Shown: piece after piece, positions 40,937 to 53,018 of the stretch
Layout of the letters: the number at the start of each line of letters is the position of its first letter
Numbering within the stretch: the first letter of the stretch is position 1
Assembly: GCA_947625225.1 (NCBI GenBank)
Contig: CANQNQ010000003.1
Span: forward strand, 40,068 to 104,067
Length of the DNA: 64,000 nt
From: an uncultured Clostridia bacterium
GTDB lineage: Bacteria > Bacillota > Clostridia > Christensenellales > CAG-917
Direction: 5' to 3'
Program-made: the position numbers and the translations under genes
Notes under the pieces: generated by a model
Seen by the model: the letters and a program-made list of their open reading frames with translations, nothing else
What the model was told of the DNA's origin: nothing
The model's database searches: none

Positions 40937-41073
40937 GATTGCATCATAGCACATTTGTCGGGATTTTTCAAGCGATATGCCAATATTTGGCCGTTAAGAC
41001 AAAATAAATGATATTTATACAATAAAATCATATAATGTTGACAATTATTTTGTTGAAGTTTATACTTAAAAAT

Positions 41074-43518
41074 ATGAAAAAGGCACACAAAGGACTGTTT
41101 TCAATTCTTTTGATATTTGTCGCCGTCGTCGCGCTTGCGGCGGGCGCGTCCTACGTATATTCGGTCGCTTATGCGGAGGCTCATGCCGAGGCGGACACCT
41201 TCGAGGTGATATTCCCGCACGACAGCTACTTCCAATCGGAACATCCCTCTCTTGTCGCGGCAAACGACGAATATCTGGCGATGTACGACGACGCGCTGAG
41301 CAAGTTGTTTGTCTCAAGCGGCGACACGTCGTACAACTACTCGCTATCGCTTGAAAATGTCAGCGGACTGTACGCAGTGGGCGCGTCGGCATTCATAATT
41401 GCCGACGGCAAATACTACACCCTGGACCTGTCCTCAAGAGAGGCGACTCCCGTACTGAGAGACGTAACGTCTCCCGCCAGAGTAAACTACTTCAACTCAA
41501 ACGGCAGCATTTTGATAGCAAAGGCGCCAACGGGCGACATAACCGTGTATGACGGCGCGCTGCAAGAACAAAAGGAAATTTACAACGAATACATAACCAA
41601 CGACGTCTACGCCACGGGCGACGGCGTCAACTTCTACGCCTACACCTTCCCGGGCGGCAAACCCCACTACGACGTGATAGACAGCGAGGGCAACTCCACC
41701 CTGCACACCGAGATAAGTTATAACGTGCGCGACTATATGTACGTGGGCGACGTGCTGTACGTCAACGTCTATTCGGAGATAACCGACGAGCACGGCACCG
41801 TCACCGAGCGCACCAATATCGCGCTGGCAAACAAGTCCACAGGCGAGCTGATAAGCGTGACCGACCTCTGCCCCGACTACTTCTACGCATACGGCAGGAC
41901 GCTGTACGCCATAGAGGACAAGGGCGGCAAGTCTATCGTCAAGGTGTACTCCCTCAACAAGACCAACGACGGTCTGGAGCAGACCGCTACCATCAGCATG
42001 GCGGGCGACGACGCGCAGCACCTCAACGGGCCGACGGACGTGGTGAAATTTGGCGAAAACACAGTGATCGCCGACAGGCTTAACAGTAGGCTGGCGTTTA
42101 TAGGCAACGACGGAGTTATGCAGCGCATCAGCGTCCCCTCCGCTCCCGTAAGACTCGCGGCGGACGACAAGGGAGTCTACATACTTTCGGAGGACGGCGG
42201 AATACGCTATGTAACAAACGGCGAATGCCGCACCGAAGTCGTCAAAGCCGAAGGTTCCATAAGCGACATAGTTTGCCTGAGCGGCATGCTATACGCGCTG
42301 ACGGACGGTGGACTGTACGCAAAGATCGGCGCCTCACTTGTGGAAGTGGCAGGCGGCATACGCGGCAGACGCATCGCCACCGCAAAGGACGGCAACAACC
42401 TCTACATCCTCGCGGACGACGGATTGACCATCGCGGACTCCAAGGGCAACACAGTCAGCCGCATCGCTGGCGAATTTGCGGACGTAAAGGACATAATGAT
42501 AGACTACGCGGGCGACGTATTCGCGCTGTACGCGGACAGGATAGAAAAATACAAAAACAACCTGAGTTCGCTGGAGCTAATAAGCTCGACAGAACTTAAA
42601 AACGCCACCGTGGACGCCACTGCGAATTCAGCATATCTGGACGACGAAGAGGTCACCTTCACTGCGGAAGAATGCTTCGCGGGCAGGCTGAGCGTGGACG
42701 CGGCAGACGAAAAAGATTTTTCAAACGAACGACCGACGCTAAGCGCGGGCGAATACAGCTTTGCAAGGCTTTCTTCAAGCGGTCACTACCTGCCCTACAA
42801 CTGCCGTCCCGAAGAAGCACACGCGCCCATCAACGACGTGTTGCTGGTGCTTGAAAACGCCGCGCCGATGGACGGATACAAATACGCATTGCTTGGCAGC
42901 GAATTGATAGTTGTGCCCGAAAACGCACTTAACGGCGTCCAACCTACCACTTTAACGGGCAGATATGACGTTATAGAGGCATGCACGCTTTACACACTGC
43001 CCTACTTTGAGGACGGCAGGATAGCGCTTGGCGCGGGCGCCACTCTCACCGTTTTGTCCGACTGCGCGGGCTATGACGGAAACGTTTGGGACATTGTGCA
43101 ATATGATGGGAAAAAGTACTTTGTAAGCGCGGCGAACCTCAAAGAACACGTGCAGATAAATCCTCCATCCGAGGACAAGTCGCAGGTGTTCGGCAGGGCC
43201 AACGCAGGCAGAGTCGGCGGACTTGTAGGCATATATTCCGACGACGCTCTGTCAAACATGACTGTCGAGATAGTGGACGGCACAAAGGTGGAAGTCATCT
43301 CGCAATACGAGGATTGTTATCTTGTCAAATACGGCGACGTCATAGGCTATATGCGTAGCGACGAACTCAAGATAAACGGGCTTACCACCGTGCAGATAGT
43401 ATCTATCGTACTCTCTATAGTGGTGTTGCTTGCGGGGAGCGGCATATTCATCGCGATATACCTCACAAAACAGGAGCTTGCAAAACGCGATAACATAGAC
43501 TACAATCCCGAAGATTGA
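41074..43518 (+). CDS. large envelope protein: N-terminal signal/anchor, beta-propeller-like repeats, two SH3b-like domains, C-terminal TM helix
   Basis: 814 aa. Begins MKKAHKGLFSILLIFVAVVALAAG. Repeated motifs of the type LY(A/I)L.DGG. The C-terminus is TTVQIVSIVLSIVVLLAGSGIFIAIYL. Confidence 0.65.
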   Translation: MKKAHKGLFSILLIFVAVVALAAGASYVYSVAYAEAHAEADTFEVIFPHDSYFQSEHPSLVAANDEYLAMYDDALSKLFVSSGDTSYNYSLSLENVSGLYAVGASAFIIADGKYYTLDLSSREATPVLRDVTSPARVNYFNSNGSILIAKAPTGDITVYDGALQEQKEIYNEYITNDVYATGDGVNFYAYTFPGGKPHYDVIDSEGNSTLHTEISYNVRDYMYVGDVLYVNVYSEITDEHGTVTERTNIALANKSTGELISVTDLCPDYFYAYGRTLYAIEDKGGKSIVKVYSLNKTNDGLEQTATISMAGDDAQHLNGPTDVVKFGENTVIADRLNSRLAFIGNDGVMQRISVPSAPVRLAADDKGVYILSEDGGIRYVTNGECRTEVVKAEGSISDIVCLSGMLYALTDGGLYAKIGASLVEVAGGIRGRRIATAKDGNNLYILADDGLTIADSKGNTVSRIAGEFADVKDIMIDYAGDVFALYADRIEKYKNNLSSLELISSTELKNATVDATANSAYLDDEEVTFTAEECFAGRLSVDAADEKDFSNERPTLSAGEYSFARLSSSGHYLPYNCRPEEAHAPINDVLLVLENAAPMDGYKYALLGSELIVVPENALNGVQPTTLTGRYDVIEACTLYTLPYFEDGRIALGAGATLTVLSDCAGYDGNVWDIVQYDGKKYFVSAANLKEHVQINPPSEDKSQVFGRANAGRVGGLVGIYSDDALSNMTVEIVDGTKVEVISQYEDCYLVKYGDVIGYMRSDELKINGLTTVQIVSIVLSIVVLLAGSGIFIAIYLTKQELAKRDNIDYNPED

Positions 43519-43723
43519 CAAATTGCATAATCAAAATTATCCTTCGCCGAGGCGGAGGATTTTTATATTCCGCCCTCTTGCGCCATTTTGGGCGCGAGAA
43601 ATAAAATAACCGCAATATATGGTAATTTCTTGTTGTAAATATTTTGAAAATATGCTAATATACTTGTTGGTAAAACCAAATTTTCAAGGAGGGCTTTTCC
43701 GCCTCGTTGCGGAAACAAAAACT

Positions 43724-44425
43724 ATGCAATATTCACGCGAAGTTGAACAAATGTGCTGCATTGCAAAGGGACCAAACCACGGTCCGGCTCCCATCCCCGA
43801 GGAAGGGAAATGGGTACAAGCCAAGGAAATCAAGGACATCAGCGGTTTTTCACACGGTATTGGCTGGTGCGCTCCTCAACAGGGCGCGTGCAAACTCAGC
43901 CTCAACGTCAAAAACGGCGTGATCCAGGAAGCGCTGGTAGAGACCATCGGCTGCTCGGGCATGACGCACTCCGCCGCTATGGCTGCAGAGATCCTCGCCG
44001 GCAAGACCATACTTGAGGCGCTCAACACCGACCTCGTCTGCGACGCCATCAACACCGCTATGCGCGAGCTGTTTTTGCAGATCGTGTACGGCAGGACGCA
44101 ATCCGCTTTTTCCGAGGACGGACTTGTCATCGGCGCGGGCCTGGAAGACTTGGGCAAAGGCCATCGCAGCCAAGTGGGCACAATGTACTCTACCGTCGCA
44201 AAAGGTCCCCGCTATCTGGAGATGGCAGAGGGTTATGTTACAAAGCTCGCCCTGGACGCCAACAATGAGATAATCGGCTATCAATTCTGCCGTCTGGGAC
44301 AGTTTATGGACGCCGTCAAGAAGGGCGTGGACGCCAATCAGGCGCTTAAGGACAACACCAAGACCTACGGCAGGTTCAACAAAGAGGACGGAGCCGTCAA
44401 ATGGATAGATCCCCGTCAGGAGTAA
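43724..44425 (+). CDS. NifU/IscU-like domain protein, conserved partner of GGGtGRT proteins
   Basis: Motif GCSGMTHSAAMAAEILAGKTILEAL. The next gene starts 13 nt downstream. Confidence 0.78.
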   Translation: MQYSREVEQMCCIAKGPNHGPAPIPEEGKWVQAKEIKDISGFSHGIGWCAPQQGACKLSLNVKNGVIQEALVETIGCSGMTHSAAMAAEILAGKTILEALNTDLVCDAINTAMRELFLQIVYGRTQSAFSEDGLVIGAGLEDLGKGHRSQVGTMYSTVAKGPRYLEMAEGYVTKLALDANNEIIGYQFCRLGQFMDAVKKGVDANQALKDNTKTYGRFNKEDGAVKWIDPRQE

Positions 44426-44437
44426 AGGAGGCAGAAT

Positions 44438-45442
44438 ATGAGCGTAACATTTGAAGGCTATGAAAGACGTATAGACAAGATCAACGCCACGCTTAAAAAC
44501 TACGGCATAAAGGATCTTGAGCAAGCAAGGCAGATCTGCCTCGACCACGGCGTAGATTGCGAAGCCATCGTAAAGGGCGTGCAACCCATCGCGTTTGAAA
44601 ATGCGGTGTGGGCATACACGGTGGGCTGTGCCATCGCCATCAAGAAAAACTGCAAGGAGGCCGCCGACGCCGCAGAAGCCATAGGCGAAGGTCTGCAATC
44701 CTTCTGCATCCCGGGCTCCGTTGCCGAACAGCGCAAAGTGGGTCTGGGTCACGGCAACCTTGCCGCAATGCTGCTTAGGGAAAGCACGAAGTGCTTTGCA
44801 TTCCTTGCCGGTCACGAATCGTTCGCGGCGGCTGAGGGCGCAATAGGCATCGCAAAAACCGCAAACAAAGTGAGAAAGACTCCCCTCAAGGTCATCCTCA
44901 ACGGCCTTGGCAAGGACGCGGCGTTCATCATATCGCGCATAAACGGTTTCACCTATGTGCAGACCAAGATGGACTACTTCACCGGCGAAGTCAAAGTGAT
45001 CAAAGAGACCGCCTACAGCAACGGCGAACGCGCGGCTGTCAGAGTGTACGGCGCCGACGACGTCACCGAGGGCGTCGCTATAATGCGCCTCGAGGACGTG
45101 GACGTGTCCATCACGGGCAACTCCACCAACCCCACACGCTTCCAGCATCCCGTCGCGGGCACCTACAAAAAATGGTGCTGGGACAACGGCAAAAAGTACT
45201 TCTCCGTCGCGTCCGGCGGTGGCACGGGCAGAACGCTGCATCCCGACAATATGGCTGCAGGTCCCGCAAGCTACGGCATGACGGATACGATGGGCAGGAT
45301 GCACTCCGACGCGCAATTTGCGGGCAGCAGCTCCGTCCCCGCCCATGTTGAGATGATGGGCCTCATCGGCATGGGCAACAACCCGATGGTTGGTGCATCA
45401 GTCGCTTGCGCGGTCGCCGTGCAGGAAGCACTGGCGAAGTAA
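44438..45442 (+). CDS. GGGtGRT family protein (function unknown)
   Basis: Contains the eponymous motif SGGGTGRTLHPD. 334 aa. Confidence 0.85.
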   Translation: MSVTFEGYERRIDKINATLKNYGIKDLEQARQICLDHGVDCEAIVKGVQPIAFENAVWAYTVGCAIAIKKNCKEAADAAEAIGEGLQSFCIPGSVAEQRKVGLGHGNLAAMLLRESTKCFAFLAGHESFAAAEGAIGIAKTANKVRKTPLKVILNGLGKDAAFIISRINGFTYVQTKMDYFTGEVKVIKETAYSNGERAAVRVYGADDVTEGVAIMRLEDVDVSITGNSTNPTRFQHPVAGTYKKWCWDNGKKYFSVASGGGTGRTLHPDNMAAGPASYGMTDTMGRMHSDAQFAGSSSVPAHVEMMGLIGMGNNPMVGASVACAVAVQEALAK

Positions 45443-45631
45443 AAAAACCTACTGTTTAGTAGCGCTATAGCAATATTGGAACAGCTCCCGATTTTTGGGG
45501 GCTGTTTACTTGTTAACCAAAAATGTATAGAAAATGTATAAATTGTTTACCGTTTGTTTACCAAAATTATAGACGTTACAACCCGATGAGTGTCATCATC
45601 TATTTTTTATTCCGATGACTGTCATCGGCAT
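45369..45631 (+). repeat. direct repeat, left copy (attL-like): last 74 nt of the GGGtGRT gene plus 189 nt downstream
   Basis: Aligns with 48438..48699. The coding part has 7 mismatches and the non-coding part is nearly identical. Confidence 0.9.
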
Positions 45632-45743
45632 GATGGTATAATTATGCAAAATAGATGCAAACAAAAAAAATTCAAGAAACACGATTTTTTGATTCTTTAC
45701 AACAAATAGTGAGTATGCTAAAATGTTTTTCGGAGGGCAACTT

Positions 45744-46439
45744 ATGGCAACGCTTACACACGAACAAATGAACAAGATAAGAAACTTTTTGTTTGCTGAC
45801 CCGATTTCTATAGAAGCATTCAAGAGGCTATATTATTTTCTGAACAAATCCGTCGATGGCGTCAGGCTCGACTATCGCACGAACAAAAACGATATGATTT
45901 TGGGCGTAAAACGAGATGGCGAGCGCTTAAGATTTTATCTTATCAGACAATATAATGACAGAATAATTTCAATAAGATTTGTCGACCCCGAAATATCCCC
46001 CGAAGTTTTCAATCCTCTTAAGTTGGACGAATATAAAGCCAATCTTATCTCAATTTCTGACAAAATTAAAGCTGGCACATTGGACTTGAAAATCAAAACG
46101 TCACACGCGCACGGCGGCAAATATGAAACGCCAAAATCCGATGAAAGCAAGGCGCTTGCGCAAAAGAGCACGTCTACTCCGCACGTCAAATACAACTTAA
46201 GACCGAGGAGTAAAACCATCAGTGGACACTATCATCCAGACAAAGAAAACGTACCAAAAAACTTTGAGTTTATCAAAAAAGAGGTAGGCACTCTATCCGA
46301 CAATGCAAACGATGTGCAAGTTACAATAAAAATCAAAATCAGCGATATAGAGCAACTCAATACAGACGCGATAAGCAAACTATTGATAAAAGGTGCTGAA
46401 CTTAACAGCATAGACTTCTGTCAAAAGAAAAAGAATTGA
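45744..46439 (+). CDS. hypothetical protein (231 aa, no recognisable domain)
   Basis: ATG preceded by GGAGGG, with its own promoter-like TTTACA, 17-nt spacer, TAAAAT, and a terminator at about 46463..46490. AT-rich codon usage unlike the core genes. Confidence 0.65.
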   Translation: MATLTHEQMNKIRNFLFADPISIEAFKRLYYFLNKSVDGVRLDYRTNKNDMILGVKRDGERLRFYLIRQYNDRIISIRFVDPEISPEVFNPLKLDEYKANLISISDKIKAGTLDLKIKTSHAHGGKYETPKSDESKALAQKSTSTPHVKYNLRPRSKTISGHYHPDKENVPKNFEFIKKEVGTLSDNANDVQVTIKIKISDIEQLNTDAISKLLIKGAELNSIDFCQKKKN

Positions 46440-46716
46440 ATTGTTTATTCCGATCGCACAAAGTAAAAGCGCCCTAGTGGGCGCTTTTGAATACGTTCAA
46501 CTGCCAAGCGTAAAAACATTATAGACAATAAAAAGTATGAGGCCGGACTACATCTGTCCGGCCATTCAACAAATTACACAACACCACTTTAGTGCAATCT
46601 ACTCAAAAATTTTCACCAAAGAGACAGCGAGCCCAGGCTGCAATATCAACAAAGGCCGCGCTTTAGGCCCTTTGTCAACAAATTTGTGTCAAACCAAGCG
46701 GTATACACTACCCATT

Positions 46717-47112
46717 TCAAACGATTTCACTGCTTATGCCCCAGTTTTTGAGGTCATAAATCGTGGACTCGATCATGTCCCCAATCCACGCCTCAATATC
46801 CCCGAAACTGTTGGCTATGTAATCCTTAGTATCCTGGGACAGCTGAGATAATGCCATCTCCTTTGCTTGAGATAAGGCCTGCATCTGCGCATCCTTGTCA
46901 AACAGGTTTTGGTCCTTTAAGCTTTGAACATAGGTCTGATATGTCACCTTGACCGCCCGGCTGATAATCTCAACGGCGTCCGTCAGGTACTTCGCATTCT
47001 TTGTGTTGGATATCTTGCTGTTGATCCAGACCACAAGTCTTTGGGTAAGCCAAGACACAAGCGCCGTCAGAACAACGCTAACAACCGACAATATAATTTC
47101 CTGCCAATCCAT
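46717..47112 (-). CDS. phage holin, LL-H family
   Basis: 131 aa. An N-terminal TM segment (IILSVVSVVLTALVSWL) is followed by a long amphipathic helical region with the ...AKYLTDAVEIISRAVKVTYQTYVQSLK... pattern typical of this family. No endolysin gene follows. Confidence 0.75.
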   Translation of the reverse strand: MDWQEIILSVVSVVLTALVSWLTQRLVVWINSKISNTKNAKYLTDAVEIISRAVKVTYQTYVQSLKDQNLFDKDAQMQALSQAKEMALSQLSQDTKDYIANSFGDIEAWIGDMIESTIYDLKNWGISSEIV

Positions 47113-47288
47113 AAAATTCTCCTTTTACAAAGCGAGCGCCATAATAGACGCTCGCTGTTCCTTTATATTCCTTAAATAAACACAGCAAATTATTTTTCAA
47201 TAAAATACACATTTGATGGAACCAAAAAAATAAGGCGACCACGGAACTTAATCCATTGGTCGCCTAATTTTTATTATCATCTTACCAT

Positions 47289-47810
47289 CTATATCTCCCA
47301 TCCGCGCTCGCTGCAATAAAAACGCAAATTTTGCTCATCAAGAGTAAAATTGCAGCACCGCGCAATAAGTTGAGGGTATCCTCTTCCCGTCGTAATTCTA
47401 GTATAAAGTTTCTGTGCCTTATCCAGAATTTCCGTTCGATGAGCATTGCACCATGTCAACTGATTGGCAAGCAGGGCTTTGTACGCTACATCCGCTGCAC
47501 TGTCGCCGGACTGGACAACGGGGTTAACGGCTGTAATGGAGTTCTTATGTACTGGTATCATGTTGTTCAGGTTGATGACCCCATAATTCCCATTGTCGAT
47601 CTTGATGAAGTCAACTTGGTTCTTCATAGATTGATGCTTGGGCTTCGGAGAACTTAACGGCGCATAATACTCCGCTCCATTGACTTCAAGCAAAATCCCG
47701 ACAAACGGGCGGTTCGCCTTCTTGTCCATGTTATACGGAACACACGGATCCCACTTGCGCAAAAAATCACAGTAGGCGGTATCAATTACATAAAACGAAA
47801 GCCTTGCCAT
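47289..47810 (-). CDS. toxN: type III toxin-antitoxin system toxin, ToxN/AbiQ family endoribonuclease
   Basis: 173 aa. Motifs FYVIDTAYCDFLRKWDPCVP, RPFVGILLEVNGAEYYAPLSSPKPKH, INLNNMIPV and CNFTLDE align by eye with ToxN and AbiQ. Confidence 0.85.
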   Translation of the reverse strand: MARLSFYVIDTAYCDFLRKWDPCVPYNMDKKANRPFVGILLEVNGAEYYAPLSSPKPKHQSMKNQVDFIKIDNGNYGVINLNNMIPVHKNSITAVNPVVQSGDSAADVAYKALLANQLTWCNAHRTEILDKAQKLYTRITTGRGYPQLIARCCNFTLDEQNLRFYCSERGWEI

Positions 47811-47820
47811 ATTCTACCCC

Positions 47821-47860
47821 AAAAAAGGTGAGGTCGAGTTGCCCCGACCTCACCTTTTTT
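47821..47860 (-). terminator. intrinsic terminator between the antitoxin repeats and toxN
   Basis: 10-bp stem GGTGAGGTCG/CGACCTCACC flanked by A6 and T6. Confidence 0.8.
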
Positions 47861-47964
47861 CACTCCCACTCATGGTAGGGTACACCGCTTTTTTCATTCC
47901 CACTCTACGGTAGGGTACACCGCTTTTTTCATTCCCACTCTACGGTAGGGTACACCGCTTTTTT
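47861..47964 (-). ncRNA. toxI: ToxI/antiQ-like antitoxin RNA: three tandem 35-nt repeats
   Basis: 47930..47964 and 47895..47929 are identical 35-mers. 47861..47894 is a 34-nt variant. Position and architecture match type III TA loci. Confidence 0.8.
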
Positions 47965-47973
47965 GACGCTTAT

Positions 47974-48002
47974 ATTATAACACGGGTTCTATCCGCTGGC
48001 AA
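47974..48002 (-). promoter_or_regulatory. sigma-70-type promoter of the type III TA locus
   Basis: The minus strand reads TTGCCA, 17-nt spacer, TATAAT, about 9 nt upstream of the first repeat. Confidence 0.6.
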
Positions 48003-48437
48003 GTGGTTTGTGCCAACTTTTTTCGAAATATAAGCGTCACTATATAATATGCCGATTTTTCTTGGAAATTATAATGCCCCGCTCACACGAGGGCACCATC
48101 TTCGTTCAAGATTTATTTGGCGAGGATAGCCCCCGCCGCGGTGGGCCTTGGGAATTTCAACCCAGCCCAAATCTATTTAAAAGGCAAAAATGCCTGGATT
48201 TTTATGCATTATCTCCTAAAATTGGAAAAATGCATAATTGCATAAAACTCAATATAATTTTGACAATTTGTTTACCGTTTGTTTACCACCTGAGAAAATG
48301 ATACCAAATGAAACCAAATGAGAGGTAGTGAAACGTAGGTTATGACATACCTCAAAAAAGTCCAAAATTGTCACTAAATACTAATGAAACGTAGTGACAC
48401 TAAGTGATAATAAATGAGAGCTAAAAACCCGTACCAA

Positions 48438-48511
48438 GCATGGGCAACAACCCAATGGTTGGTGCATCAGTCGCTTGCGCGGTGGCAGTGCAAGAAGCTC
48501 TCGCCAAGTAA
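48438..48511 (+). pseudogene. orphan duplicate of the last 23 codons plus stop of the GGGtGRT gene
   Basis: Encodes the same peptide tail (...MGNNPMVGASVACAVAVQEALAK) as 45369..45442, using 7 different synonymous codons. There is no upstream reading frame. Confidence 0.85.
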
Positions 48512-48699
48512 AAAAACCTACTGTTTAGTAGCGCTATAGCAATATTGGAACAGCTCCCGATTTTGGGGACTGTTTACTTGTTAACCAAAAATGTATAGAA
48601 AATGTATAAATTGTTTACCGTTTGTTTACCAAAATTATAGACGTTACAACCCGATGAGTGTCATCATCTATTTTTTATTCCGATGACTGTCATCGGCAT
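48438..48699 (+). repeat. direct repeat, right copy (attR-like)
   Basis: See 45369..45631. Confidence 0.9.
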
Positions 48700-48934
48700 T
48701 TATCATAAATTATATCAAGGCATTTAAAAGCATTAAACAATGGGTCAATGACAATCCCGACGAAGCGGTTAAGCTTGTGCCTCCCGGAACATTGCTTACC
48801 ATGGACGCATATTTAAATGTATATTATGACACTCATTCAAAATCGGAATAGAATCATCCAAAAGTAAAATCCAAATTAAGTAAAAGCGCTCCGAGAGGGG
48901 CGCTTTTGGATATCTAATTGGTTTTTTTGGCTAA

Positions 48935-49492
48935 TTATCTTATACCGGCGAAGGAGGAGGTGTACTGCCCTATATACTTTTCAAGCACGGCGATGGCTTC
49001 CTGCGCGTTGGCGACGCCGAAAATTCTGTCCTCGGGGATTTCCTCATAGCGAACGCGACCGTCAAGACGAGTATCCGCCACTTTGCTGCTCCAGCCCGCT
49101 CCTCTGTCGTACGCCAATATAAGCCTCTTAAGCGTCCAGGCGGAGGAGATCTCCGCAAGCGTGCCCGATCCACCGCCCACTGCGACCACCGCGTCGGAAT
49201 TGGCGACGATCACATTGCGATATATATCCAGCCCCGTTGCGATGGTTATGTCCGCAAACTTGTTGCCGGCCTTGCGGTCGAACATGGGAAGTATAGCGAT
49301 GGTGTCGCCCTCTGTATAGCATTCGGACGCCTTTGCGCCCTCAAAAGCAGCCTGCATAACGCCGCCCATGCCGCCGGACACCACTCTGTAGCCGTTGTCC
49401 ACAAGCGCTTTGCCCAGTTCGTAGGCAAACGTCAATCTGCTGTCGCCCTCGGGGACGGAGCTGTCGCCTATAATGGAAACCATCTTCTTCAT
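48935..49492 (-). CDS. TIGR00725-type LOG/lysine-decarboxylase-like Rossmann protein
   Basis: Motifs VVSGGMGGVMQAAFEGA and AVGGGSGTLAEIS. Confidence 0.75.
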   Translation of the reverse strand: MKKMVSIIGDSSVPEGDSRLTFAYELGKALVDNGYRVVSGGMGGVMQAAFEGAKASECYTEGDTIAILPMFDRKAGNKFADITIATGLDIYRNVIVANSDAVVAVGGGSGTLAEISSAWTLKRLILAYDRGAGWSSKVADTRLDGRVRYEEIPEDRIFGVANAQEAIAVLEKYIGQYTSSFAGIR

Positions 49493-49646
49493 ATAATAAA
49501 CCTCGCTTTACCGCGTCATAGATGGCACGATAGGATTCTTTATATATATTGTACACACAAAATGCAAAAGTTGCAAAAGTTTTTATGGAATATTTTCAAA
49601 TGTGATGTTAATATTATATTGTCAACAATTTGCAGCGAGGTGCTAT

Positions 49647-50840
49647 ATGGACATATCAAGCAAACTCAATCCCGTGGCGCGCGCGCTCAAGCCGTCCGGG
49701 ATACGCGAATTTTTCGGCATAGCGGCAAGTCGCAAGGGCTGTCTGTCGCTCGGCGTGGGCGAGCCGGACTTTTCCACGCCCTCCGTGTTCAGCCAAGCGG
49801 GGATCAACAGCATATACGCGGGACTTACCGGCTACACCGCCAACGCGGGGCTCATAGAGTTGAGGCAGGCGATCGCGCGCTACACGCGGCGTTTCATCGG
49901 CGTTGAATACGACCCCGAAAGCGAGATAATCATCACGGTGGGCGCGTCGGAAGGCATAGACATCGCTTTGCGCGCGCTGTGCGCTCCCGGCGACGAGATA
50001 CTTGTGCCCGAACCATGCTTTGTTTGCTACGAGCCGCTTGTCAGCCTGTGCGGAGGGACGCCCGTACCCATTCAGACGCGCATAGATGAGGAGTTTCGCC
50101 TCACGCCGGAAGCTCTTGAAGCCAAGATAACGCCGCATACAAAGCTGCTTATACTCGCCTATCCCAATAACCCCACGGGCGGCATAATGGAAAAGAGCGA
50201 CCTTGAGGCGCTGCTGCCCATCATCAAAAAGCACGATCTGCTTGTACTCAGCGACGAGATATACGGCGAGCTGATATACGGCGGCGCAAAATTCTGCTCC
50301 ATAGCGTCCTTCGAGGGTATGCGGGAGCGCACGGTGGTGGTCAGCGGATTTTCCAAATACTTCGCTATGACCGGTTGGAGACTTGGCTATGTGTGCGCGC
50401 CAAAGCAGATAAGCGACGTGATATTCAAGATACATCAATACGCTATAATGTGCGCGTCCACGTCCGCCCAATATGTGGCGCTTGCCGCGCTGGATGCCTC
50501 TTTCCGCAACAACTTCAAGGAAGTGGGACAGATGAGGCAAACATACGACACACGCCGCAAATATCTTGTGGAGAGGCTAAACTCCATGGGTCTGGACTGC
50601 TTCGAGCCGCGCGGCGCGTTCTACGCCTTCCCCAGCGTAAAGATAACGGGTATGGACGGCGAAAAGTTTGCCTACGCACTGCTGGACGCCAAAAATGTCG
50701 CGGTGGTCCCGGGCAACGCGTTTGGCAAGAGCGGCAAGGATTTTATACGCATAAGTTACGCATATTCCATGGATATAATCGTGCGCGCGCTCAATCTCAT
50801 AGAGGAATTCCTGAAAGGATCGGGCTGCTACAATAAATAA
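49647..50840 (+). CDS. class I/II pyridoxal-phosphate-dependent aminotransferase (aspartate aminotransferase-like)
   Basis: Motifs NPTGG and SGFSKYFAMTGWRLGY (PLP lysine motif). The start is set at MDISSKLNP. Confidence 0.88.
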   Translation: MDISSKLNPVARALKPSGIREFFGIAASRKGCLSLGVGEPDFSTPSVFSQAGINSIYAGLTGYTANAGLIELRQAIARYTRRFIGVEYDPESEIIITVGASEGIDIALRALCAPGDEILVPEPCFVCYEPLVSLCGGTPVPIQTRIDEEFRLTPEALEAKITPHTKLLILAYPNNPTGGIMEKSDLEALLPIIKKHDLLVLSDEIYGELIYGGAKFCSIASFEGMRERTVVVSGFSKYFAMTGWRLGYVCAPKQISDVIFKIHQYAIMCASTSAQYVALAALDASFRNNFKEVGQMRQTYDTRRKYLVERLNSMGLDCFEPRGAFYAFPSVKITGMDGEKFAYALLDAKNVAVVPGNAFGKSGKDFIRISYAYSMDIIVRALNLIEEFLKGSGCYNK

Positions 50841-50915
50841 AATTTTACAAAATAATGACTTTACATAAACAAAAACGCGTGATAAACACGCGTTTTTGTT
50901 ATATTCTCAAAATTC

Positions 50916-53018
50916 TTACAGTTTGTGAACGGCAACGTCGTAAGCCTCGGCGGTGGCGTTTGCAATGCGCCCTATCTTGGCTGCGTCGCCTATCACGTAC
51001 ATATTTTCAAACTTACCCTCAAGCTCCTTTGCAAGCTCGTTGCAAGGATGTGAGCCAAGCGACAACACTACCGCGTCGCAGTCGATATGCTCCTCCGCGC
51101 CCTTCACCGTCACCTTGTGTTTCTTGTTTATCTTGACGGGCACGACCACCACGCCGCTGTCGTCAATACGCACAAGTTTGCGGCGCAACATATATTTTGC
51201 CGTTTCGCCCAAACGCGCCTTTGCGTCGTCCACATGCTGGAACCAGGTGCCGGGAGCGACCGTATCCGCCATCTCCACAATTGTCAGATGATTGCCGCAC
51301 TCTTTAAGCAACTCGGCGGTTTCAAGTCCCGTCATACCGGAGCCGATTATCGCGACGTTCTTGCCGTACAGTTTGACTGTGCCGTCTATAATTTCCGTAG
51401 TGGTATACACGTTGTCGCGGTCGGCGCCCTCTATACTCTTTGGCTTGAACGCCTTTGCGCCGGTTGCGATTATCACCGCATATGGGTCATACGCCGCTAT
51501 CTTTTCATAGTCCGCCTTGACGCCGCACACTATCTCCGCGCCTTGCTTGACCGCATTGGTGTACATATCCTCTATGCACCAGCCCAGTTTGCTCTTTCTG
51601 GGAGGACGGGTGGCGAGGTTGATCTGTCCGCCGACCTTCTCTTCCGCCTCGAGCACCACGACCTTAAAGCCGCGCCTTGCCGCCATTTCCGCCGCGGTAA
51701 GTCCGCCTACGCCGGCGCCGACGACGACTACCGTCCTGCCATTGCCGTCCTTCTTGAGCTCGTTGAATTCGCGCTCGCTGCCCACGGTGGGGTTGACGGA
51801 GCAATAGCCGTGATCGCCCACGTACGCGTTCTCCTGCATACTCTCTATGCAATTGAGGCAGCATATGCAGCGCTTGATCTCGCTCTCTCTGCCCTCAAGG
51901 GTCTTGTTTGCCCAATGGGGGTCTGCTATGTGGGGACGCCCAAGCGACACAAAGTCTTGCGTGCCCTCCTCGAGCTGCTGTTCCGCCTGCTCAGGAGTGC
52001 GGATGAGGTTTGCGGCAAGCACGGGGATCTTGACCTCTTTTTTGACGCCCGCGGCGAGGTATTTGCGCCAGCCGGGTTCGAAACTTGTTGGCTCCAACCA
52101 ATAGTTAAACGTGTCATATGCAGCGGATGAAACGTCGATTGCGTCGGCTCCAAAGGCTTCAACCATCTTGGCGTACTTCAATCCTTCCTCAAAGTCATAC
52201 CCCTTTCCGGGCTTGCCGATCTTGTCGTAGAACTCGTCCAGAGTGAGCCTGACGATGATGGGATAATCTCCGCATTTTTCGCGGATGCCCTCTATGATCT
52301 CTTTGAGGAAACGCAGCCTGTTTTCAAAACTGCCGCCGTACTCGTCCTTGCGCTGATTGGTGTTGCGGCTCAAAAATTGCTGTATGAGGTAGCCGTGCGT
52401 GCCGTGAAGTTCCACGCCGTCCACGCCCGCCTTTTGGCAGCGCACCGCGCCGTCCACAAATTGTTGGACGAGCTGTTTTATCTCGGAGTGCCTCAGCGCT
52501 CTCACCCTGCCGCCCGCAAAATATGACGGCTCGCACGCGGAGGGTGCAACCGAACGCAGGGTCAAGTTTTTGTCGCACAGCGTCTTGCCAAGTTTGGGCG
52601 CAACTTTGAACAGCAATTTGGGAAAGCTTTTGCACACCCTTGTAGCCGCAATGCACATGGGCACGGTGCCCACGGCAAGTCCCACATTCTGTCTGCCGGG
52701 ATGGTGCAACTGCACAAACAGTTTTGCGCCGTGCTTGTGTATGCGCTCGGCAAACTCTTTAAGTCCGTCTATCTGATAGTCATGGCTGACGCCCAACTGA
52801 GCGAACGCCGCCGCGCCGTGTTTGTCGTTGACGCGCGTGATCTCTGTGATGATGAGACCCGTGCCGCCCTTTGCGCGCTCCTCATAGTAGTCCATCAACT
52901 TTTGGGTAACGCAGCCGTCCAGCTGTCCGAATCCCATAAGCATCGGCGACATAACTATGCGGTTTTTGATCTCGCAATTGCCTATTTTCATAGGCGTAAA
53001 CAACATTTTGTAATCCAT
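50916..53018 (-). CDS. Old Yellow Enzyme-family NADH:flavin oxidoreductase fused to an FAD/NAD(P)-binding domain (2,4-dienoyl-CoA/enoate reductase-like)
   Basis: N-terminal TIM-barrel OYE motifs, a Cys cluster CICCLNCIE...C, and the dinucleotide folds VVVVGAGVGG and VAIIGSGMTG. Confidence 0.88.
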   Translation of the reverse strand: MDYKMLFTPMKIGNCEIKNRIVMSPMLMGFGQLDGCVTQKLMDYYEERAKGGTGLIITEITRVNDKHGAAAFAQLGVSHDYQIDGLKEFAERIHKHGAKLFVQLHHPGRQNVGLAVGTVPMCIAATRVCKSFPKLLFKVAPKLGKTLCDKNLTLRSVAPSACEPSYFAGGRVRALRHSEIKQLVQQFVDGAVRCQKAGVDGVELHGTHGYLIQQFLSRNTNQRKDEYGGSFENRLRFLKEIIEGIREKCGDYPIIVRLTLDEFYDKIGKPGKGYDFEEGLKYAKMVEAFGADAIDVSSAAYDTFNYWLEPTSFEPGWRKYLAAGVKKEVKIPVLAANLIRTPEQAEQQLEEGTQDFVSLGRPHIADPHWANKTLEGRESEIKRCICCLNCIESMQENAYVGDHGYCSVNPTVGSEREFNELKKDGNGRTVVVVGAGVGGLTAAEMAARRGFKVVVLEAEEKVGGQINLATRPPRKSKLGWCIEDMYTNAVKQGAEIVCGVKADYEKIAAYDPYAVIIATGAKAFKPKSIEGADRDNVYTTTEIIDGTVKLYGKNVAIIGSGMTGLETAELLKECGNHLTIVEMADTVAPGTWFQHVDDAKARLGETAKYMLRRKLVRIDDSGVVVVPVKINKKHKVTVKGAEEHIDCDAVVLSLGSHPCNELAKELEGKFENMYVIGDAAKIGRIANATAEAYDVAVHKL

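Follow-up and report, generated by a model that had tools for sequence, protein, structure and literature searches.

A defective prophage at the 3' end of a protein-coding gene is known from Escherichia coli, where e14 occupies icd and the two copies of the gene end (icd/icdC) differ mostly by synonymous changes. According to PMC13626634, which cites Hill et al. 1989, excision of e14 yields a chimeric gene end. Tandem elements at a shared site are known from the ICESt1 family of Streptococcus thermophilus, in which cis-mobilizable elements (CIMEs), decayed forms of the conjugative integrative and conjugative elements (ICEs) or integrative and mobilizable elements (IMEs), accrete at att sites (PMC5704250). 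In a lambda-type attP, long arms (P and P') lie on either side of a short exchange region, and short motifs are common to both arms. The structure described here is an AT-rich islet of 2.8 kb behind a GGGtGRT gene in 64,000 nucleotides of DNA from an uncultured Clostridia bacterium of the Christensenellales (GenBank assembly GCA_947625225.1, contig CANQNQ010000003.1, positions 40,068 to 104,067 of the forward strand). This whole stretch is referred to as the window, and loci from other assemblies that were compared with it carry L numbers. The islet is very probably the decayed, integrase-less remnant of a temperate phage at the end of the GGGtGRT gene, formed by two events and subsequent deletions, during which a ToxIN toxin-antitoxin cassette was kept. 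The parent phage would belong to, or be mosaic with, a family of large Christensenellales phages of about 93 kb.

As in the case of e14, end repeats with the 3' end of a gene, a related element with homologous arms, an element-free allele and a phage gene were found, but a cognate integrase was not. The islet differs from e14 in size (2.8 kb versus about 15 kb) and in the lack of an integrase; e14 has kept its own and excises on SOS induction. The target gene and the host phylum are also different, and the right site of the islet is attP-like (P - tail - P', the tail being a copy of the last codons of the gene) and records two events. With CIMEs the islet shares the lack of integration genes, the retention of both att sites and the tandem position with a further-decayed related element at a gene 3' end; by analogy, its mobilisation in cis or trans by a related functional element is conceivable. 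However, the islet is phage-derived, with a holin and phage att arms, and has no conjugation or relaxase genes, and membership of the CIMEs was rejected on these grounds of origin. The long arms and shared short motifs are as in a lambda-type attP, and an integrase with an arm-binding domain is present at the same gene end in L078; in contrast to the 15-bp core of lambda, the block of identity in the islet is about 74-80 nt, and its arm sites are putative.

The closest precedents are accordingly e14 in icd and, for the tandem state without integrase, CIMEs and their accretion. The structure is of a well-known kind and reveals no new mechanism. What the locus adds is a new target gene, hot-spot behaviour of this gene across Clostridia, and a long repeat that consists mostly of phage arm DNA present twice. 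It can serve as an example of how layered att scars are read from the extent of the carried tail, the arm motifs on both sides and a mosaic of single-nucleotide polymorphisms (SNPs) that locates the exchange, and as a warning that a long "target duplication" can be phage arm DNA in two copies. It also provides an anchor with which prophages and defence islets may be located in the poorly studied Christensenellales, together with a candidate ToxIN system.

Repeats and attachment arms at the GGGtGRT gene end

The integration target is the GGGtGRT gene (44438..45442, plus strand; Pfam PF14057, E value 7e-197), the last 23 codons of which lie within the left of two direct repeats. Alignment confirmed these repeats at 45369..45631 (263 nt) and 48438..48699 (262 nt), as well as the seven synonymous differences, one indel and one substitution reported in the original prediction. 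The first 74 nt of the repeat are the end of the GGGtGRT gene. In this part the copies differ at positions 45385, 45415, 45418, 45424, 45430, 45433 and 45436; all seven differences are at third codon positions and synonymous (P, V, A, Q, A, L, A), and both tail copies encode MGNNPMVGASVACAVAVQEALAK followed by the stop codon. As 25% of the possible single substitutions in these codons are synonymous, seven of seven would occur by chance with P = 6e-5. In the 189-nt non-coding part the copies differ only by an indel of 1 nt (45492, an additional T) and a substitution (G/A at 45501), both in a hairpin. The coding part was therefore more diverged (7/74) than the non-coding part (2/189; Fisher p = 0.002), which is the opposite of neutral divergence of one duplicated segment. 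After integration, the codons supplied by the phage would complete the host GGGtGRT gene, so that the carried copy would be held to synonymous changes.

The left tail copy (45369..45442, plus strand) is the core region of attL and contains the presumed exchange point at 45425..45429. The right tail copy (48438..48511, plus strand) has no start codon and comes after the P arm. Its left boundary is conserved: its first base coincides with that of the tail copy carried by a prophage of about 93 kb (...CAA|GCATGGGCAAC).

Several short-read contigs break inside the repeat (L084-L086 and L089), which would be in line with an assembly artefact, the outcome that the original prediction had named as counting against it. 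However, an independent assembly from the European Nucleotide Archive, made from another sample (L081; 6643 nt, 99.97% identical), spans both repeats, so the islet structure is not an artefact of assembly, and the copies differ at 9 positions in a biologically coherent pattern. The chance that the duplication is artificial is negligible. Parts of the islet were also present in three further contigs (L082, L083 and L089).

The 93-kb prophage was found on contig CANQBO010000001.1 of the metagenome-assembled genome (MAG) Lapin-001__bin50. At about 9.6 kb of this contig (L104) a GGGtGRT gene with its tail is followed by a block homologous to the P' arm of the window. At about 102.4 kb (L102, the same as L094) a block homologous to the P arm and an identical tail copy are followed by the host gene TyrS without a P' block. 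The two sites correspond to attL and attR and delimit a prophage of about 93 kb, only the ends of which were sampled. Its attL was reached with a DNA pattern, as the GGGtGRT protein is too conserved to tell hosts apart. The block after the gene in L104 contains the parts of the 189-nt segment of the window in the same order, namely CTACTGTTTAGTAG, a hairpin, ATGTATA twice, GTTTACC-N4-GTTTACC and AACCCAATGAGTGTCATCATCTATT, and its gene tail does not differ from the copy at the prophage's opposite end. At that end, the lysis genes in L094 are followed by a stretch homologous to window 48268..48516, including the detached GGGtGRT tail (23 of 23 amino acids). The P'-homologous block is absent from attR of the prophage, the P-arm homologue is absent from attL, and the host DNA to the right of attR is unrelated.

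The first copy of the P' arm in the window (45443..45631, plus strand) is 80% identical over 162 nt to the block after the gene at the prophage attL. On the plus strand it contains the motif CTACTGTTTAGTAG (45449..45462), a hairpin (45482..45504), 1.9 copies of AAAATGTATAG (45520..45540), GTTTACC-N4-GTTTACC (45545..45562) and CCGATGAGTGTCATCAT (45583..45599). The P arm (48185..48437, plus strand) is homologous to the DNA to the left of the detached tail copy at the prophage attR, the identity being 74% over 48268..48516 and 69% over 153 nt for the arm alone. Its motifs, also on the plus strand, are 3.2 copies of AATTGCAT (48220..48245), GTTTACC-N4-GTTTACC (48270..48287), 2.6 copies of AAATGAAACC (48296..48321) and AATGAAACGTAGTGAC (48383..48398). 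A second copy of the P' arm (48512..48699, plus strand) forms an attP-like junction with 48185..48511. The same short motifs occur on both arms, with two copies of GTTTACC at 11-nt spacing and with CTACTAAACAGTA inverted between the arms, and the arm repeats are phased with periods of 11, 11, 10 and 8 nt. The P' arm of the window matched only attL of the prophage and the P arm only attR; both arms are of phage origin, and the repeats are att-derived. Farther to the right lies the remnant of a second, older or tandem, element (48700..48878, plus strand), which is present in L084 and absent in L086. It includes an inverted copy of the ATGAGTGTCAT motif at about 48826 and contains a C-terminal fragment of an open reading frame (ORF) of 54 codons (48687..48851). 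The 54-amino-acid fragment had no match in Pfam or PHROG, and among the retrieved loci a relative was found in L084 only.

Because the 189-nt block occurs only at attL in the intact lysogen, it is regarded as phage-borne. On the evidence of these comparisons, the non-coding segment of the repeat is the P' arm of a phage and not duplicated host DNA, the left repeat is an ordinary attL, made up of host gene, tail and P', and the right repeat together with the P arm is a P - tail - P' junction that resembles attP. Such a junction cannot arise from a single integration at a virgin site, and two events are therefore recorded. The original prediction had treated the repeats as a simple pair of attL and attR, within coordinates that left out the 179-nt remnant at 48700..48878, and had implied that the 189-nt segment was host DNA at both sites. 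It had also proposed the palindrome CCGATGAC-T-GTCATCGG (45612..45628 and 48680..48696, one per repeat) as a candidate core or crossover site. Under this scheme of a single integration, the 262-nt repeat would be host DNA carried by the element, and the end of homology between the copies, 3 nt past the palindrome, would mark the crossover. However, the homology ends there because different DNA follows, the islet on the left and the older remnant on the right, and not because of an exchange. The palindrome itself is one copy of a degenerate motif (CCGATGAsTGTCAT), other copies of which lie 29 nt upstream in each repeat and, inverted, at about 48826, and the motif recurs several times in the P' arm of the 93-kb prophage. 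In addition, the non-coding block is present only at attL of the lysogen, the host DNA to the right of attR is unrelated, one allele (L086) lacks the palindrome segment, and the SNP mosaic of another (L084) places the exchange in the tail at 45425..45429. Integration in a single event is thus highly improbable, and the palindrome was rejected as the core. The idea that the GGGtGRT 3' end is the target of an integrative element with its own copy of that end was upheld by the prophage at the same gene, by L084 and by integrases or prophage remnants directly behind this gene in other Clostridia; its details did not hold.

The palindrome motif may instead be a regulatory or accessory-protein site. 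A promoter-like sequence (45615..45642, plus strand) straddles the border between the left repeat and the islet, with the -35 region ATGACT in the palindrome and an extended -10 region (TGnTATAAT) that is islet-specific; the palindrome of the right repeat has no -10 region. The junction region (45632..45743, plus strand), with a putative promoter for the first gene of the islet found by a consensus scan, is partly conserved upstream of homologues of this gene in L096-L099.

An allele with a single repeat copy, which had been suggested as a check of the prediction, was found in L084. This contig is islet-free and consists of 8 nt of gene context (TCTCATCG, versus CGTACCAA in the islet), one tail, one P' arm, the 179-nt remnant and a SLOG gene; as judged from this layout, L084 keeps the older scar without the islet. 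Its tail is a mosaic (LLLLRRR), with the bases of the left copy at 45385, 45415, 45418 and 45424 and those of the right copy at 45430, 45433 and 45436. Such a clean switch would occur by chance with P of about 0.05. The exchange, by integration or excision, would accordingly have occurred within 45425..45429, inside the last six codons. The two non-coding repeat variants were uninformative, since they vary from one assembly to another and short-read assemblers could collapse a segment of this length.

A third state was present in L086 (99.1% identical in the SLOG flank), in which the tail is followed by a terminator insert of 62 nt, an incomplete tail copy and the P' arm only as far as GTTTACC. 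The SLOG terminator comes next, without the palindrome segment and the remnant, and 46 unrelated nt replace window 45568..45631 plus 48700..48878. In L096 and L097, from a sister species of the lysogen, the gene and tail are followed by P' up to the GTTTACC motif, a homologue of the first islet gene and TyrS, and no second tail is present. This layout suggests that the P' arm and the first islet gene travel together.

The topology and the SNP mosaic would look alike if a circle with about 262 nt of homology had been inserted by RecA in a Campbell-type event, or if a local duplication and insertion had occurred without a site-specific recombinase; the repeats are long enough for homologous recombination. 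Against this, the carried gene fragment has the same left boundary in an unrelated lysogen, both arms have conserved phased short repeats that are typical of sites for recombinases and accessory proteins, and integrases occur at the same gene end in other genomes. The source of the 262 nt of homology would moreover still be a phage attP. A RecA-dependent origin is therefore considered quite unlikely. The recombinase was probably of the tyrosine type with arm binding, because of the phased short repeats on both arms and the integrases found at the site elsewhere.

Islet contents and related phages

The enclosed DNA, which forms the largest AT-rich block of the window, has a G+C content of 33-47%, compared to 55-61% for the flanks; this profile across the junctions was another of the checks that had been suggested. 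Only three ORFs are present, an orphan gene, a holin gene and ToxN. The orphan gene (45744..46439, plus strand; 231 amino acids) has one homologue with 64-65% identity, which is also located directly after a gene tail and P' block, so that the link to P' exists in two species. The orphan protein had no match in Pfam, PHROG or PADLOC, and an AlphaFold2 model based on a two-sequence alignment was unusable (predicted local distance difference test score, pLDDT, 45.8). The holin gene (46717..47112, minus strand; 131 amino acids) is full length and matched PHROG 13712 "holin" with an E value of 5e-25 and Pfam Holin_LLH weakly. Its product is 70-78% identical to the holins after the tail-fibre genes of related phages and of the prophage. 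No endolysin gene adjoins it. Between ToxN and the holin gene lies a terminator hairpin (47226..47272, minus strand), an inverted repeat homologous to the terminator after the lysis or moron genes in L091, L094 and L109. The Pfam and PHROG searches thus agreed with the cargo as first described, a holin without endolysin, a type III toxin-antitoxin system and an orphan ORF without an integrase. Classification as a phage satellite (a phage-inducible chromosomal island, PICI; a PICI-like element, PLE; or a P4-like element) was rejected, as only the orphan gene, holin and ToxN are present and the islet has no integrase of its own, no replication genes and no genes for helper hijacking or packaging.

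In the phage contigs L091 and L109-L111 the gene order is tail fibres, holin, a 140-amino-acid gene, a variable slot and the converging genes for dUTPase, NrdG, NrdD and PolIII-alpha. The slot after the lysis genes contains ToxN in L091 and HicAB in L109. The ends of the 93-kb prophage are syntenic with the uninterrupted phage contigs L109 and L091, and the genes at its left end match the converging module of L109. From this synteny the prophage is a genome of the L109 type that was opened at the slot behind the lysis genes, where attP is located. The prophage (about 9.7-102.4 kb), which appears to be intact, comes from a rabbit-gut Clostridia MAG and encodes NrdD and NrdG; genes for dUTPase, a nucleotide kinase, PolIII-alpha and a DnaB-primase are present in its relatives as well. 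Transposable elements of the IS200/IS605 type were observed in the structural and tail regions of phage relatives, with TnpA and TnpB about 7 kb upstream of the holin gene in L105 (1477-2996) and TnpB directly upstream of it in L107 (935-2029). The stretch just upstream of the holin gene is variable in other phage relatives, too.

The favoured explanation is that phages of this kind integrate site-specifically into the last codons of the GGGtGRT gene, with an attP that would consist of a 74-nt copy of the last 23 codons between a P arm and a P' arm, both rich in short phased repeats. Either a phage would have entered the attL scar left by a related element that had come before it, or a tandem double lysogen would have arisen. 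Both routes would give the order gene - tail - P' - [element 1] - P - tail - P' - [element 2]. Deletions would then have cut element 1 to 2.8 kb with the orphan gene, the holin gene and ToxIN, and element 2 to 179 nt, so that two integrations would have preceded the deletions. The remnant would persist since ToxIN is addictive and may protect against phages.

Several observations weigh against this explanation. No integrase or recombinase was found in the islet or among the other low-G+C ORFs of the 64-kb window, and because its cognate integrase is missing the islet is called a remnant. In the 93-kb prophage, too, no recombinase was located in the 6.3 kb next to attL or the 12 kb next to attR, and its sampled ends lack the orphan gene. 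The similarity of the arms to those of the prophage is moderate (69-80%). Compared to related phages, the block of holin and terminator has an inverted orientation with respect to the P arm, and ToxIN is upstream, not downstream, of the holin gene; a simple internal deletion cannot yield this gene order. A related scrambled arrangement was found in L090. The strain of L084 is only 96.5% identical to the window in the flank, and its gene context is just 8 nt. Finally, no free attP was detected in viral or metagenome collections. Scans of viral contigs gave no match for a degenerate gene-tail pattern, for a probe of the junction of P arm and tail, or for relatives of the holin, orphan and ToxN proteins, and scans of JGI metagenomes gave zero matches for a P' block pattern and for the junction probe. 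The large temperate phage family was absent from IMG/VR by the probes used, and in GTDB genomes the junction probe detected the Lapin-001 lysogen only.

The original prediction had left the choice between a decayed prophage and a minimal cassette mobilised in trans, and the first is the better option in view of the 93-kb prophage with its homologous arms. As a cassette, the islet would be an active mini-element without integrase, either a phage-type counterpart of CIMEs or a minimal satellite. The unit P' - orphan - holin - ToxIN - P would be excised, carried as a hitchhiker and re-inserted at the GGGtGRT end by co-resident or infecting phages of the 93-kb family, which would supply Int and Xis in trans and spread ToxIN between strains. 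Every cis element needed for this is kept, and recombination between the two tails would free a P - tail - P' circle and leave the L084 allele. The islet is present in some strains and absent in others, its P' copies are nearly identical (two differences in 189 nt), and a second species again has the P' arm and the orphan gene together as one unit. On the other side, neither a circular junction nor a further insertion site was seen, the five islet-bearing contigs all being collinear with the window and in no other context. L084 may never have received the islet, replication and packaging functions are lacking, and the gene order looks scrambled relative to the phages. Both an active mini-element and such transport by phages are rather unlikely, and the islet is preferably read as a decayed prophage remnant.

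Type III toxin-antitoxin cassette

The islet encodes a toxin of the ToxN/AbiQ family, an endoribonuclease family (47289..47810, minus strand; PF13958, E value 1e-47; PADLOC AbiQ, E value 2e-34; PDB 4ATO, E value 8e-22). Solved structures of ToxN relatives in the PDB are 4ATO, 2XD0 and 4GLK. Upstream of the toxin gene and on the same strand lies a ToxI-like antitoxin RNA locus (47821..48002, minus strand). It begins with a near-consensus promoter (48002..47974, minus strand; TTGCCA-17-TGnTATAAT), followed by an array of 3.2 copies of a 35-nt repeat (47964..47854, minus strand) and by a 16-bp hairpin before the toxin gene (47860..47821, minus strand). The features by which a type III toxin-antitoxin system is recognised at the sequence level, a ToxN/AbiQ toxin, an upstream array on the same strand, a promoter and an intervening terminator, are thus all present, and the ToxIN/AbiQ cassette is anatomically complete as far as the sequence can tell.

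The order of promoter, short tandem array and terminator hairpin before a ToxN-family toxin gene on the same strand is as in ToxIN and in AbiQ-antiQ. In these systems the arrays comprise 2.8 copies of 35 nt (antiQ) and 5.5 copies of 36 nt (ToxI). In contrast to them, the repeat sequence of the islet matches no Rfam family; a scan of 43000..51000 gave only sub-threshold matches at chance level. One assembly, L083, lacks exactly one 35-nt unit (47874..47908) and has 2.2 instead of 3.2 copies. The ToxN protein of the window and that of the related phage L091 are only 39% identical. The cassette would be active, and phage defence together with self-stabilisation by ToxIN/AbiQ is the most likely present role of the islet.

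A sub-threshold match to the Rfam DUF3800-XI RNA motif (48122..48169, minus strand; 25.7 bits versus a gathering threshold of 37.8, E value 0.015) falls within a hairpin of high G+C content that lies between the promoter of ToxI and the P arm. In L090 (10001-11470), which is another island with an integrase, BrnTA and HicB, a holin gene whose product is 78% identical to the holin of the islet precedes a promoter and repeat region that shares 84-87% identity with the ToxI region of the window. A 117-amino-acid ORF without family match takes the place of ToxN there, and the shared terminator and a C-terminal holin fragment follow. An 18-amino-acid C-terminal remnant of ToxN was also present in L090 (8803-8856). 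This locus may represent a type III-like cassette in which the toxin has been swapped.

The GGGtGRT gene end in other genomes

Eighty GTDB loci around GGGtGRT genes were examined. Tyrosine integrase genes were located about 100 nt after the GGGtGRT stop codon in L004 (a fragment), L036, L061 and L078, and the integrase of L078 is the one with an arm-DNA-binding domain. A second copy of the gene tail was present 10 kb downstream in L061, where it encloses an island with the integrase and agr genes, and 7.5 kb downstream in L066, where it encloses a prophage remnant. The 3' end of this widespread, highly expressed and uncharacterised gene is a recurrent attachment site for phages and islands in gut Clostridia. 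The papers listed as mentioning GGGtGRT were proteome or omics-type listings, and none of them dealt with integration.

In three loci the last 13-14 codons of the GGGtGRT gene were stacked, each copy with its own terminator; two to three extra copies were present in L005 and L101, and one in L086. The stacks are located at 11000-11400 in L005, at 11000-11290 in L101 and, in the orientation of the window, at 1-190 in L086. That of L101 consists of two identical tandem units of 140 nt and a third, diverged copy. These stacked tails look like scars of another family of elements with a shorter carried tail.

The slot behind the GGGtGRT gene collects defence genes, and its cargo varies by lineage, with AbiE in L001 and an Mrr-type nuclease in L005. 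If the islet were after all carried between strains by members of the 93-kb phage family, the GGGtGRT gene end would act throughout Christensenellales and other Clostridia as a slot in which defence cargo is exchanged. It would hold ToxIN in the window and AbiE or the Mrr-type nuclease in the loci just named, with HicAB at the matching slot inside the L109 phage.

Directly before the GGGtGRT gene of the window lies a NifU-like gene with a weak NifU_N match, the two genes together covering 43619..45442. In L100, L101 and L104 a gene of similar size occupies this position. The arrangement hints at a conserved unit of two genes with a role related to iron-sulfur metabolism. Upstream of this pair, an ORF of 827 amino acids (41035..43518, plus strand) has no Pfam match, and the hydrophobic stretches at both of its ends suggest a secreted or membrane-anchored product.

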